Part shown: positions 43,932 to 48,708 of the stretch, one piece after another
Layout: each line of letters opens with the position of its first letter
How positions within the stretch are numbered: the first letter of the stretch is position 1
Source of the DNA: TPA_inf: Saccharomyces
Lineage: Eukaryota
Assembly (NCBI GenBank): GCA_000146045.2
Contig: BK006936.2
Coordinates: forward strand, 64,001-128,000
Direction of reading: 5' to 3'
DNA: 64,000 nucleotides
The notes under the pieces: model-generated
What the model saw: the letters and a program-made list of their open reading frames with translations, nothing else
Told to the model about the DNA's origin: nothing
The model's database searches: none
Position numbers and translations under genes: made by a program

Positions 43932-45995
43932 ATGTGCGCCAGTTTAAACGAGGTAAAAAAGAATGACACCTATGGGGTCTCACAAAAGGGCTACAATGAC
44001 AATTTCAGTGAAAGTGAGGGCGTCCTTCATGGTAGTAAGTCGATGCCCACTAGCATGAAAAATATGCTACAGTCTCCCACGATGGTCAACATGTGTGATA
44101 TTTTACAAAACAAGGAAGCTGCTAATGACGAAAAACCTGTGATACCTACTACGGATACCGCCACTGCGGGGACTGGTACTGAAGATATTAGCTCCACTCA
44201 ATCCGAGGAAACTGATCAGAATAGTCATCTTATTGCCTCAGAGATCTTGGAAGGCACTTTCAAAGATGTATCTTACAAGGAATATGCAAATTTCTTGGGA
44301 AACGATAACAATAATCAAGTCTTGACTGAGTTTGTAAAGTTATTGAGTCCTTTGCCGTCGTCACTATTAGAAACGCTTTTCAATTTATCGAAAAGTATAT
44401 ATTTCATTGCAGAAGCGCAAAATATCGACCGGATACTAGAGTGCTTGAGCATAGAATGGATAGCTTGCCACCCGAACACACATTGGAAGTCAGGCTATAA
44501 GTCATGTCATATAGTCTTATTTTCCCTGTTGATCCTTAATTCGGATTTGCACAACAACTTTCAAGTTGACCATAAAAAGATTAAGTTTTCCATGGTTGCA
44601 TTTATCAACAATACACTGAGGGCACTAAGAGAGGAAAATGAATACGAAGAATTGAAAATATACTCCCGCGAACATTTGATCATCGAAGAACTTTCCGAAT
44701 ACTATAAAACGTTAAATGAAACGCCTTTACCGTTATGCACAGAATCTAGAACATCAATAAATATATCAGATAACCAATCTTCCTTGAAAAGGTTCTCTAC
44801 TCTAGGATCACGGGAATTTAGTACATCAAATTTACGTAGTGTTAACTCTAATTCTACTACACTATATTCAAGAGATGGTCAAGTATCTGTACGAGAAATG
44901 AGCGCAAAATCAAATAAAAACTTTCACAATAATCACCCCATGGATGCACTCTACCTTAAAGAGTCTTTTGATGACGGTTTAATTACCGAAAACGGCTCCA
45001 GTTGGTTCATGGACGATTTAATTCTTATAAGCAAGAAATCTTTACCACGTAAATATTCTAAAAGAGACAAAGATCAAGTGGCGGCACCAAAAATGACCTC
45101 TAAGAGAAACAAATCGTTCTTCGGATGGCTAAAACCATCTAAAACGACTACACTTATTGAGCACACATCTAGAAGGACTTCTTTATCGTATTTGAATAAG
45201 GATTCTGAATGGGAGAGGGTGAAAATACAGGTCAAGGAGGGCAGAATTTTTATTTTCAAAATTAAACCAGATGTTAAGGATATCATCCAATCAAGTGAAA
45301 CAGACAGTGCTACCATCGACTATTTCAAAGATATCAGTAGCTCTTATTTTGCTTACTCACTGCTTGAAGCTGAAGCACATGTCGTGCAAGATAATATAAT
45401 TATAGGTAGTGGAGCAATGAAATCAAATGTGTGTAACAAAAACACCAAGAGGAAAAGTGGCAACTTTACCGTTAGTTTTCCAGAGAATATCAACGGACCA
45501 AAGCTTGTTCTGGAGTTCCAGACGAGAAGTGTTGAAGAAGCCCACAAGTTTATGGACTGTATCAACTTCTGGGCAGGTAGGATTTCTCCAGTTCCTTTAA
45601 CACAATTCGAAGCCGTATCTAACGCAGAATATGGATGGAGTGACAAGATCTTGACAGAGCACGCTTCCCTCAATCTTAAAAATATTGTTGTAAGTGAATG
45701 GAAGCCACTATTGGGGCTAGAGCTACTATACGAAGATGCGAAAGATGTAGAGATGGTCGAACTAAAAGAAAGGCTAAAGGAATTGATGAACTTCACCAGA
45801 CAGCTTGGTATATGGATAGATAAACATAACGAAATAAAGGATAAGCTGGTCGAAATTTGGAGCTTTGACGATAACTATTTTGAAGCAGTCATGAATAATT
45901 GGAATTCGAGATATTTGTATATGAATAATCAATATAAGAAACGACTGAGCTACTTGAAAGCTTTGCAAAAAGCCATGGGTTCTGTTCAGTTCTAA
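43932..45995 (+). CDS. YEL1: YEL1, Sec7-domain guanine-nucleotide exchange factor for Arf3
   Basis: 687 aa from the ATG at 43932 (MCASLNEVKKND...). The ORF-track start at 43893 is a TTG. The Sec7-like region (SIEWIACHPNTHWKSG) is present. Confidence 0.85.
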   Translation: MCASLNEVKKNDTYGVSQKGYNDNFSESEGVLHGSKSMPTSMKNMLQSPTMVNMCDILQNKEAANDEKPVIPTTDTATAGTGTEDISSTQSEETDQNSHLIASEILEGTFKDVSYKEYANFLGNDNNNQVLTEFVKLLSPLPSSLLETLFNLSKSIYFIAEAQNIDRILECLSIEWIACHPNTHWKSGYKSCHIVLFSLLILNSDLHNNFQVDHKKIKFSMVAFINNTLRALREENEYEELKIYSREHLIIEELSEYYKTLNETPLPLCTESRTSINISDNQSSLKRFSTLGSREFSTSNLRSVNSNSTTLYSRDGQVSVREMSAKSNKNFHNNHPMDALYLKESFDDGLITENGSSWFMDDLILISKKSLPRKYSKRDKDQVAAPKMTSKRNKSFFGWLKPSKTTTLIEHTSRRTSLSYLNKDSEWERVKIQVKEGRIFIFKIKPDVKDIIQSSETDSATIDYFKDISSSYFAYSLLEAEAHVVQDNIIIGSGAMKSNVCNKNTKRKSGNFTVSFPENINGPKLVLEFQTRSVEEAHKFMDCINFWAGRISPVPLTQFEAVSNAEYGWSDKILTEHASLNLKNIVVSEWKPLLGLELLYEDAKDVEMVELKERLKELMNFTRQLGIWIDKHNEIKDKLVEIWSFDDNYFEAVMNNWNSRYLYMNNQYKKRLSYLKALQKAMGSVQF

Positions 45996-46124
45996 GTATA
46001 TTTAAAGATATAAATATAAAGACTGCGCTGAAGAAATATAAACTTGAAAACTGTACTCTGCCTTTTATTTACAAGGGATATTGAGATGATTTGTGTGAAT
46101 GAAGTAGCGACAGAAAAAAAGCTT

Positions 46125-46539
46125 TTATTTCGAGTTCGCATCATTGTCACTTTCCTGCTTTTTCTTGGCGTACTGTCTATCTAAGATAGTCTTTAATATA
46201 GCGTCCTCGCCATATTCTTCTTCCTCAATTTTCTTCCATCTCTTTTCTACATCAGCTCTCTTTATTCTACTTTCAATGACAGCACGTTTCTTGTTATTCA
46301 AACTTGCCTCCTTGAGACACTTGTTCAAAGCATCCTTTTCGTTGTTACAAAGGCCAAATATTCTCTTGTAATATTCCTTTTGATGGCATTTATCGAGTGC
46401 ATTGATGAAGTCCAAACAGGCTAAAATGAAGAAGGGGAGAATACAATGTTAGTAAGTCGGAGCACAGAAAAAGGCAAATATATGAAGTAAAATCTGGATA
46501 CTTACAATGAAAACGTTCAGCTTCTAACTGTGGATGCAT
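46125..46539 (-). CDS. CMC2: CMC2, twin Cx9C protein of the mitochondrial intermembrane space. Spliced: exon 1 is 46539..46506 and exon 2 is 46420..46125 on the minus strand.
   Basis: Exon 1 (ATG CAT CCA CAG TTA GAA GCT GAA CGT TTT CAT T) encodes MHPQLEAERFH plus 1 nt. The donor is GTAAGT, the branch TACTAAC is on the minus strand at 46453..46447 and the acceptor is TTTTAG. The spliced product is 109 aa with two Cx9C pairs (C-LDFINALDK-C and C-NNEKDALNK-C). The ORF track shows only exon 2. Confidence 0.88.
46421..46505 (-). other. CMC2: Intron of CMC2 (85 nt)
   Basis: GTAAGT donor, TACTAAC branch and TAG acceptor. Splicing restores the reading frame. Confidence 0.85.
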
Positions 46540-46593
46540 GTTGTAGTACTTGTCTTATCTTGCTTTTGTTCAACTGCACTTGTAAATCAGTGA

Positions 46594-47244
46594 ATGTTAT
46601 TGGACGCGCAGCGATTTTTTAATAGGTCTTTCTCTATTAATGTAATATGCGAATTGAAACATAATGTAAACACAAGAAGAAAATTCGAAATAAAGGACTG
46701 GCCAACAATAATGTTAGTGAGCAGAAACGACAAGCCCAAAATCAGTAGTGAGGAAGTCACACATTTTATAGACGACTATAAAAAGAGGAGGAAAACTCAG
46801 ATGACACGATTCTTCGGAATCACTATTTTTACACTTATAACATGTAGAATTGCCATGAAGAAAATGATAACTGCAAAAGGTATGCATAGGCAATAACTTC
46901 GGCCTCATACTCAAAGAACACGTTTACTAACATAACTTATTTACATAGTGCCATTGAACACTTTTCAAGCAAACTACGCCAGCCGGACGCAGACAATAAC
47001 ACACACACAAAAGAGTCTTGCAGGTTCTCTTTTAGCGGCAACGGGCATGACACTAGGTATATTTGGTATGGGCATCACAGGGACATGTTGGAGCTGGGAT
47101 GTTTCATCATTTCAGGAACTAAAGCAACGTCTGGAAAGGCGTGCCAACAACGAATTTGTAGTGACAAACATGCCTCTGGATAAAAGAAGCCAGCAAGTAG
47201 TGGACAGCTTAGTTAAGACACACAATTCATCTCTTTGTAAATAG
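46594..47244 (+). CDS. YBL059W: YBL059W (I recall this being named IAI11), a small mitochondrial membrane protein. Spliced: exon 1 is 46594..46879 and exon 2 is 46949..47244.
   Basis: The ATG at 46594 is preceded by an in-frame TGA. The donor is GTATGC at 46880, the branch TACTAAC is at 46925..46931 and the acceptor is the AG at 46947..46948. Splicing joins ...MKKMITAK-V-PLNTFQANYASRTQ... into a 193-aa product. A hydrophobic segment (SLAGSLLAATGMTLGIFGMGITG) lies in exon 2. Confidence 0.8.
46880..46948 (+). other. YBL059W: Intron of YBL059W (69 nt) with a non-consensus GUAUGC 5' splice site
   Basis: GTATGC donor, canonical TACTAAC branch 17 nt upstream of the AG, and a frame-restoring junction. 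Confidence 0.75.
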
Positions 47245-47436
47245 TGTTATACCATAGTAGTAGTTTCAATAATATATTCCACTACTTATATGTGTTACCC
47301 GCATTAGAACTCTTATTGGTGGCGAAAATCGATGGCAATAAAGAACGGAAGGGGTTTAATAGTTGTATGCTTAACATATTTCGATTTAAATATATAAGAA
47401 ACGTCGGTAGCACAACAATTAACTCATTATTTAGGT

Positions 47437-48708
47437 ATGGCGGAAATACCTGATGAAACCATCCAGCAGTTCATGGCATTGACCAATGTGTCGCATAACA
47501 TAGCCGTTCAATATCTCTCTGAATTTGGAGATTTAAATGAAGCACTAAATTCCTATTATGCTTCTCAAACGGATGACCAAAAGGATAGAAGAGAGGAAGC
47601 ACATTGGAACAGACAGCAGGAGAAGGCCCTCAAGCAAGAAGCCTTCTCCACCAACTCTTCGAATAAAGCCATAAATACGGAGCACGTTGGTGGGTTATGT
47701 CCAAAACCAGGATCCTCACAAGGTAGCAACGAGTACTTGAAAAGGAAAGGTTCTACCTCTCCTGAACCAACCAAGGGTAGTAGCCGCTCTGGAAGTGGTA
47801 ACAACTCCAGGTTTATGAGCTTTTCGGATATGGTAAGAGGTCAAGCTGATGATGACGATGAAGATCAACCGAGAAATACTTTTGCTGGTGGTGAAACATC
47901 CGGCTTAGAGGTTACAGATCCTTCAGATCCTAATTCATTACTGAAGGATTTGCTGGAAAAAGCGAGAAGGGGTGGTCAAATGGGCGCTGAAAACGGATTC
48001 CGTGATGACGAAGACCATGAAATGGGTGCCAATAGGTTTACTGGAAGAGGTTTTAGATTAGGGTCAACCATCGACGCAGCAGATGAAGTCGTAGAAGACA
48101 ACACTTCACAATCACAACGTAGACCAGAAAAAGTCACAAGAGAAATTACATTTTGGAAGGAAGGTTTTCAAGTGGCCGATGGTCCGCTTTATCGCTATGA
48201 TGATCCTGCGAACAGTTTCTATTTGAGCGAGTTAAATCAAGGGAGGGCTCCATTAAAGCTCTTAGATGTGCAATTTGGACAAGAAGTTGAAGTTAATGTA
48301 TATAAAAAATTAGATGAGTCTTATAAAGCTCCGACGAGAAAACTGGGCGGTTTTTCAGGCCAGGGCCAAAGACTAGGATCTCCTATCCCGGGTGAATCGT
48401 CACCTGCGGAGGTTCCAAAGAATGAGACACCCGCTGCTCAGGAACAACCCATGCCGGACAATGAGCCAAAACAAGGCGACACCTCCATCCAAATTAGATA
48501 CGCAAATGGCAAAAGAGAAGTTTTGCACTGCAATTCCACAGATACAGTAAAGTTTTTGTATGAGCATGTGACATCAAATGCGAACACTGACCCATCGAGG
48601 AATTTCACCTTGAATTATGCCTTTCCTATCAAACCAATAAGCAACGATGAGACAACATTGAAGGACGCTGATCTGCTGAACTCCGTTGTCGTGCAAAGAT
48701 GGGCATGA
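47437..48708 (+). CDS. SHP1: SHP1, UBX-domain Cdc48 cofactor (p47 homologue)
   Basis: 423 aa with ATG at 47437. It has an N-terminal UBA-like region, a central SEP domain and a C-terminal UBX domain (IQIRYANGKREVLHCNSTDTV). Confidence 0.9.
   Translation: MAEIPDETIQQFMALTNVSHNIAVQYLSEFGDLNEALNSYYASQTDDQKDRREEAHWNRQQEKALKQEAFSTNSSNKAINTEHVGGLCPKPGSSQGSNEYLKRKGSTSPEPTKGSSRSGSGNNSRFMSFSDMVRGQADDDDEDQPRNTFAGGETSGLEVTDPSDPNSLLKDLLEKARRGGQMGAENGFRDDEDHEMGANRFTGRGFRLGSTIDAADEVVEDNTSQSQRRPEKVTREITFWKEGFQVADGPLYRYDDPANSFYLSELNQGRAPLKLLDVQFGQEVEVNVYKKLDESYKAPTRKLGGFSGQGQRLGSPIPGESSPAEVPKNETPAAQEQPMPDNEPKQGDTSIQIRYANGKREVLHCNSTDTVKFLYEHVTSNANTDPSRNFTLNYAFPIKPISNDETTLKDADLLNSVVVQRWA

Follow-up and report, generated by a model that had tools for sequence, protein, structure and literature searches.

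A probably misannotated IAI11 start codon and the compact divergent promoter shared by CMC2 and IAI11 in Saccharomyces cerevisiae

The genes CMC2 (YBL059C-A) and IAI11 (YBL059W) of Saccharomyces cerevisiae are highly likely to be a divergent pair served by one short shared promoter, in which the 54-bp spacing of the annotated start codons is an artefact of longest-ORF annotation and IAI11 is translated from Met40 to give a protein of 154 residues. The corrected spacing is 171 bp from ATG to ATG and ~108 bp between the transcription start sites (TSSs). The misannotated start and the TSS positions are already known from the literature, and the gene pair is ordinary as biology; the value of the correction is one of bookkeeping for those who work on these two genes. 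The case also shows that a longest-ORF start call can produce an apparently extreme intergenic distance.

Organization of the locus

The window is the whole stretch of 64,000 nucleotides of chromosome II (chrII) of S. cerevisiae S288C that was analysed, numbered as the chrII coordinate minus 64000. The published chrII tables (CMC2 110539..110125, YBL059W ORF end 111244, SHP1 111437..112708) correspond exactly to the window after this subtraction. The local gene order is YEL1 (+), CMC2 (−), IAI11 (+) and SHP1 (+).

CMC2 occupies positions 46125..46539 of the minus strand and begins with the ATG at 46539. Its splice signals and translation give a twin-Cx9C protein of 109 amino acids, encoded by a 34-nt exon 1 (46539..46506) and by exon 2 (46420..46125), which are separated by an intron (46505..46421) with the signals GTAAGT, TACTAAC and TAG. 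The Pfam domain Cmc1 matches residues 1–68 (E = 1e-19) and begins at the very first residue, while the start region GGATGCATG is invariant in all six Saccharomyces species compared. Cmc2 is a Cmc1-family factor of cytochrome oxidase biogenesis and assembly.

IAI11 is annotated on the plus strand with exon 1 at 46594..46879, an intron at 46880..46948 and exon 2 at 46949..47244. The resulting 193-residue product is that of the S288C reference entry “Iai11p [S. cerevisiae S288C]”, and the annotated ATG at 46594 is immediately preceded by an in-frame TGA.

The sequence-only reading of this DNA had placed the two start codons 54 bp apart, head-to-head, and as a description of the annotation this distance is exact. 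The 54-bp segment itself (46540..46593) comprises the CMC2 leader and 24 bp of upstream promoter DNA, and is only part of the intergenic region. The mitochondrial nature of both proteins, claimed in the same reading, agrees with the literature and, for CMC2, with the Cmc1 match. That both introns are 5′-proximal holds loosely: the CMC2 intron fits, beginning 35 nt past the ATG, and the IAI11 intron begins 287 nt past the annotated ATG, or 170 nt past Met40. The use of ATG 46594 as a start codon is not confirmed, as the IAI11 TSS at 46677 lies downstream of it and neither the ATG nor its frame is conserved.

Transcript 5′ ends

In the tables of Malabat 2015 (eLife, PMC4434318), the YBL059W ORF starts at chrII 110711, which is Met40 (46711 in the window), and its mRNA extends over chrII 110677–111405, with the 5′ end at 46677. 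The mRNA coordinates of that study come, according to its methods, from Pelechano 2013, and the ORF starts were corrected after the Park 2014 list of misannotated start codons; from the corrected coordinate we infer that YBL059W is on this list. The TSS cluster classed as “mRNA” for YBL059W covers chrII 110656–110747 (46656–46747, plus strand), with read counts of 205, 240, 167 and 221 for the four strains (PMC4434318), the TSS data being those of glucose-grown cells. The leader from the major 5′ end of IAI11 to Met40 is 34 nt long, A-rich and free of ATG. The CMC2 mRNA, placed at chrII 110569–109961 in the same tables, has its major 5′ end at 46569 and an A-rich leader of 30 nt (46540..46569, minus strand; ACAAAAGCAAGATAAGACAAGTACTACAAC), likewise without an ATG. 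Because Met40 is the first AUG that an IAI11 mRNA beginning near 46677 contains, the protein made from the gene is most likely the one of 154 aa.

Among the 206 wild-type IAI11 reads in the Malabat read classes, 175 have Met40 as the first AUG, 26 start inside the ORF and 5 (~2%) carry an upstream AUG. For CMC2, the first AUG is the gene’s own start in 1262 of the 1320 wild-type reads, with 57 reads starting inside the ORF and a single one carrying an upstream AUG. Three short uORFs are located at 46640..46669 on the plus strand (ATG-TAA at 46640, MRIET-stop at 46647 and ATG-TAA at 46664), all of them 5′ of the main IAI11 TSS. No further upstream ATG follows that at 46664 on the IAI11 strand, and the CMC2 strand has a single one, at 46662. 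From these positions and the read classes it follows that the main CMC2 mRNAs start at 46661 or lower and the main IAI11 mRNAs above 46664; the main transcripts of the two genes diverge without overlap. The sequence-only reading had held that start sites far outside the 54 bp, along with uncorrelated expression, would speak against it, and for the start sites the outcome is divided: the IAI11 TSS is outside, 83 nt into the annotated ORF, and the CMC2 TSS is inside.

These data bear directly on the reading in which the annotation is right, with a 193-aa Iai11 made from ATG 46594 on transcripts initiated within the 54-bp gap or in CMC2 itself. Such transcripts might be seen in the short RNA-seq contigs that carry the full spliced 193-aa ORF (34 index blocks, longest contig below 10 kb). 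However, at most 5 of the 206 wild-type reads could include ATG 46594, and from chrII 110323 to 110656 the Malabat 2015 tables (PMC4434318) are free of plus-strand TSS clusters. Together with the comparative evidence given below, this makes the 193-aa product extremely unlikely.

A related reading accepts Met40 as the main start and supposes a minor or condition-specific upstream TSS, used for example in respiration, which adds a young extension of 39 residues specific to S. cerevisiae. Upstream-starting reads do exist at a minor level, the region is covered by RNA-derived contigs, although these assemblies are strand-blind, and yeast genes commonly switch between core promoters from one condition to another (Lu & Lin 2019, CAGE). 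The upstream-AUG reads, however, are NMD-sensitive, with 5 in the wild type and 14 in upf1-delta (p = 1.7e-4), a pattern that points to the ATG-TAA mini-uORFs at 46640 and 46664 and away from productive translation of a long ORF. This second isoform is considered very unlikely.

In S. uvarum, the contigs L003 and L004 (Logan ERR3994174 and ERR3994164) must be RNA-derived, since the CMC2 and IAI11 introns are precisely removed from them. L003 spans YEL1-CMC2-IAI11 and L004 spans CMC2-IAI11-SHP1-PTH2, both continuously across the gaps, showing that low-level transcription covers all intergenic gaps of the neighbourhood in this species. Taking these gap-spanning contigs as proof of overlapping mRNAs was rejected, because unstranded assemblies merge minor isoforms of both strands.

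The next plus-strand cluster upstream of that of IAI11 is antisense inside CMC2, at 46284–46323 (chrII 110284–110323). It is cryptic and very weak, with 0, 0, 1 and 9 reads across the strain columns of the Malabat upf1/rrp6 (NAM7_RRP6) table.

Conservation of the IAI11 start codon

In the six-species DNA alignment, S. uvarum and S. eubayanus have GAG where S. cerevisiae has the ATG at 46594. Frame analysis shows that S. kudriavzevii keeps the ATG and meets a stop after 8 codons, that the S. mikatae frame stops after 16 codons, and that the S. paradoxus ATG begins an ORF of 39 codons that is out of frame with Met40 and has its TAA overlapping the Met40 ATG. The annotated orthologues contain 154 (S. 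paradoxus), 156 (S. mikatae), 164 (S. kudriavzevii) and 157 (S. uvarum) residues.

The first ATG present in all species is that of Met40, at 46711 in S. cerevisiae. Its distance from the CMC2 ATG is 171, 172, 177, 161, 168 and 168 nt in the six species, and the length differences are not multiples of three. The stretch from Met40 to the intron, on the other hand, is exactly 168 nt long in six of six species, without indels, and its substitutions show a third-position bias, with 4, 5 and 16 changes in the first, second and third codon positions against S. paradoxus and 8, 4 and 27 against S. uvarum. From S. cerevisiae to S. paradoxus, the “extension” changes at 7 of 84 nt and the coding exon at 25 of 168 nt, and this greater similarity of the extension fits conserved regulatory DNA better than it fits a coding region.

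When 1.84 billion representative proteins are searched exhaustively with phmmer, 41 matches result, and none of those from outside S. cerevisiae extends to query residues below 34. The typical family members, 120–160 aa in length, align from query residues ~39–60. The contexts of the two candidate start codons differ as well, with A at −3 for Met40 and T at −3, a poor Kozak context, for ATG 46594.

Within S. cerevisiae, neither S288C nor any of the 14 protein variants found closes the frame that begins at 46594. This is what the annotated 193-aa product would call for, and the intact frame also suits a young, species-specific second isoform. Moreover, residues 1–39 are net basic (7 Lys and Arg versus 4 Asp and Glu) and could pass for a targeting signal. 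Against the 193-aa product stand the loss of the ATG or of the frame in all five sister species, the absence of the extension from every homologue and the poor start context. In addition, Iai11 has two transmembrane domains with both termini in the intermembrane space (preprint), for which a cleavable matrix presequence is not expected. As for a second isoform, residues 1–39 show no sign of constraint, with variant sites among strains at 5 of 39 positions versus 10 of 154 in the rest of the protein (p = 0.19). The ten S. cerevisiae genomes that were compared had been selected for an identical protein, and are uninformative on polymorphism.

The preferred reading is the one in which IAI11 starts at Met40. 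Translation very probably does not begin at the ATG at 46594, and the 39 codons that the annotation gives YBL059W as its N-terminus (46594..46710, plus strand), open in frame only in S. cerevisiae, are most likely non-coding promoter and leader DNA. The probable corrected coding region extends over 46711..47244 of the plus strand, with exon 1 running from the Met40 ATG at 46711 to 46879, the intron at 46880..46948 and exon 2 at 46949..47244, and encodes 154 aa.

One further S. cerevisiae-like protein, P0036 (84 aa), is a variant of the exon-1 product with a frameshift after codon 64. Its source is a strain in which IAI11 is disrupted, or else the frameshift is a sequencing error.

Origin of the misplaced start

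IAI11 resembles other yeast genes with an internal TSS and a misannotated start, such as ECM1 (YAL059W). Its dominant 5′ end is 83 nt 3′ of the annotated ATG, an in-frame ATG in good context follows 34 nt past the TSS, and the N-terminal extension is absent or unconserved in the orthologues of five of five sister species. Nothing essential distinguishes it from these genes, except that the spurious 117 nt overlie a promoter shared with a divergent neighbour, as a result of which the intergenic region looks impossibly short. Park 2014 (SMORE-seq) describes 150 genes with a dominant TSS 3′ of the annotated ATG, backed by conservation and ribosome footprints, and Lu & Lin 2019 describes the correction of 122 yeast start codons.

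The reference annotation takes the first ATG of the longest open frame, at 46594, directly after the in-frame stop. When the 171 nt upstream of Met40 are shuffled, an in-frame, ATG-started extension of any length arises in 21% of the shuffles, one of at least 20 codons in 4.2% and one of at least 39 codons in 0.7%. At these rates, tens to hundreds of spurious extensions are expected in a genome of 6000 genes, which is of the same order as the 122–150 reported misannotated starts.

The shared promoter

Two divergent stable transcripts start within one NDR-sized interval, at 46569 (−) and 46677 (+). The ~107 bp between the two TSSs have a GC content of 33% and would form a single nucleosome-depleted region (NDR), in which two oppositely oriented pre-initiation complexes could assemble, each core promoter being located over or beside the start site of the other gene. 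Such a geometry would permit common upstream control yet unequal output, and the output of CMC2 is indeed ~4–7 fold above that of IAI11.

The center of this interval contains a block at 46599..46620, made of a minus-strand CCAAT (46599–46603), the sequence ACGCGC (46604–46609) and a run of six T (T6, 46615–46620). ACGCGC is the sole run of at least five bases that is invariant in the six species within the non-coding part, whereas CCAAT is present in three of the six only (S. cerevisiae, S. paradoxus and S. uvarum). A conserved CCAAT box would be expected of a respiratory promoter under HAP2/3/4/5 control, for which the present one is at most a candidate site. A motif scan of 46500–46760 found no TATA box and no Abf1, Reb1 or Hap1 site, and no Rfam RNA family was found in 45900–47500. 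Yeast NDRs are typically determined by CGCGC (Rsc3/RSC) motifs and poly(dA:dT) tracts. By their sequence, ACGCGC and T6 are candidates for a nucleosome-depleting element of the RSC/Rsc3 plus poly(dA:dT) type.

The groups of Xu and of Neil reportedly described, in 2009, single-NDR bidirectional promoters that serve divergent gene pairs of S. cerevisiae. The CMC2/IAI11 promoter is like them in its AT-rich region with closely spaced TSSs, its central conserved GC motif and poly-T, and its asymmetric output; it differs in being shorter, and the NDR is here deduced from sequence. In a recent survey (NAR 2025, PMC12159744) of 749 single-NDR yeast bidirectional promoters, the medians are 342 bp for promoter length, compared with 171 bp here, and 143 bp for the NDR. 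The other divergent ORF pairs in the 64-kb window are roughly 330–1600 bp apart. The spacing of CMC2 and IAI11 is compact, yet within what one NDR accommodates, while a promoter of 54 bp would exceed that.

The sequence-only reading had called for either an extremely compact bidirectional promoter or overlapping 5′ ends. A short, shared, divergent control region stands, and neither the 54 bp as the promoter nor an overlap of the main mRNAs does. The arrangement had further been described as unusually tight even for yeast, a view that has to be given up, as both the ATG-to-ATG and the TSS-to-TSS distances are within the range of single-NDR bidirectional promoters. CMC2 and IAI11 have an ordinary compact yeast bidirectional promoter.

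Regulatory meaning of the pairing

Co-regulation of CMC2 and IAI11 is plausible, because each product has a link to the biogenesis of cytochrome c oxidase. Iai11 is a member of the Aim11–Mtc3–Iai11–Gep7 inner-membrane complex, which two recent preprints link to cytochrome c oxidase assembly and carrier biogenesis. In the eight samples of one paired series, which have almost no dynamic range, the expression of the two genes correlates with r = 0.60 (p = 0.12). In the supplements of the Higdon et al. preprint, YBL059W appears in expression tables only.

It is possible, though on balance unlikely, that the proximity has no regulatory meaning and reflects inherited synteny of genes with independent core promoters and independent regulation. 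The difference in output is compatible with this, and pronounced asymmetry of output is described for yeast bidirectional promoters in the literature (NAR 2025, PMC12159744). In tda1-delta cells, IAI11 is reported as changed and CMC2 is not listed. Nor is the spacing conserved beyond Saccharomyces, where it amounts to 255, 256 and 559 bp. On the other side, the TSSs are closer to each other than the width of the median NDR, and upstream elements must therefore be physically shared. The head-to-head orientation has moreover survived the whole-genome duplication and is present in a locus of unduplicated order, and both products are connected with cytochrome c oxidase assembly.

Age of the gene pair

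A Cmc1-family gene is head-to-head with an AIM11-family gene in the six Saccharomyces species, and the same pairing is found in two distant post-duplication yeasts, in GCA_000236905.1 with a gap of 256 bp and in GCA_000150035.1 with a gap of 255 bp. From their accession series, these assemblies are presumably those of Tetrapisispora phaffii and Vanderwaltozyma polyspora, respectively. In GCA_050947655.1, the genes are in the unduplicated order PUP3–CMC2–AIM11–TSC11, with 559 bp between CMC2 and AIM11. PUP3 and TSC11 also flank the AIM11 copy in the sister loci of AIM11 type, from which CMC2 is missing. As the unduplicated order has the pairing and the AIM11-type sister loci are without CMC2, the pairing is older than the whole-genome duplication. 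Judged from the locus pairs L018/L019, L021/L022 and L023/L024, CMC2 was kept beside the IAI11-type copy after the duplication and lost beside the AIM11-type copy. YEL1-like genes adjoin either copy in these loci, depending on the species.

CMC2 and IAI11 are similar in this respect to other conserved fungal divergent pairs, since their families stay head-to-head across lineages, but gene order is widely preserved among yeasts, and the spacing ranges between 161 and 559 bp. That the two form an ancient unit held by selection, because a shared promoter co-regulates two factors of cytochrome c oxidase and inner-membrane biogenesis, is a doubtful proposal with a modest chance of being correct.

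Consequences for work on Iai11

Iai11 is probably 39 residues too long in the reference proteome and in the models derived from it. This affects the AlphaFold models of the Aim11-Gep7-Iai11-Mtc3 complex (2026 preprint), mass estimates, predictions of targeting signals and the placement of N-terminal tags.

The iai11-delta allele of the knockout collection, in which the annotated ORF is deleted, was used in the 2025 Aim11 preprint. This standard deletion (46594–47244) would remove everything beyond −54 of CMC2, including the ACGCGC/T6 block. It may consequently alter CMC2 expression and add to the oxidase phenotype ascribed to Iai11. As the deletion takes the CMC2 promoter, an effect on the neighbouring gene should be excluded for this allele. 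AIM11 overexpression rescues iai11-delta (preprint), which argues that an effect through CMC2 is not the main cause of the phenotype.

Introns of the two genes

The IAI11 intron (46880–46948) has the non-consensus 5′ splice site GTATGC, which is kept in five of the six Saccharomyces species and is replaced by GTATGT in S. mikatae. In file 2 of Malabat, the RNA read count of YBL059W is 1227 in the first, presumably wild-type, column and 2110, 3955 and 3391 in the others. IAI11 is also one of nine genes changed in the Luc7 N-terminal deletion. The splice site, the read counts and the Luc7 result suggest that IAI11 is spliced inefficiently, with decay of the pre-mRNA.

The 5′ splice site of CMC2 (46500–46505) is GTAAGT in S. 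cerevisiae, S. paradoxus and S. mikatae, and the consensus GTATGT in S. kudriavzevii, S. uvarum and S. eubayanus as well as in two distant yeasts. The 34-nt first exon of CMC2 is conserved throughout the Saccharomyces species and in the two distant yeasts compared.
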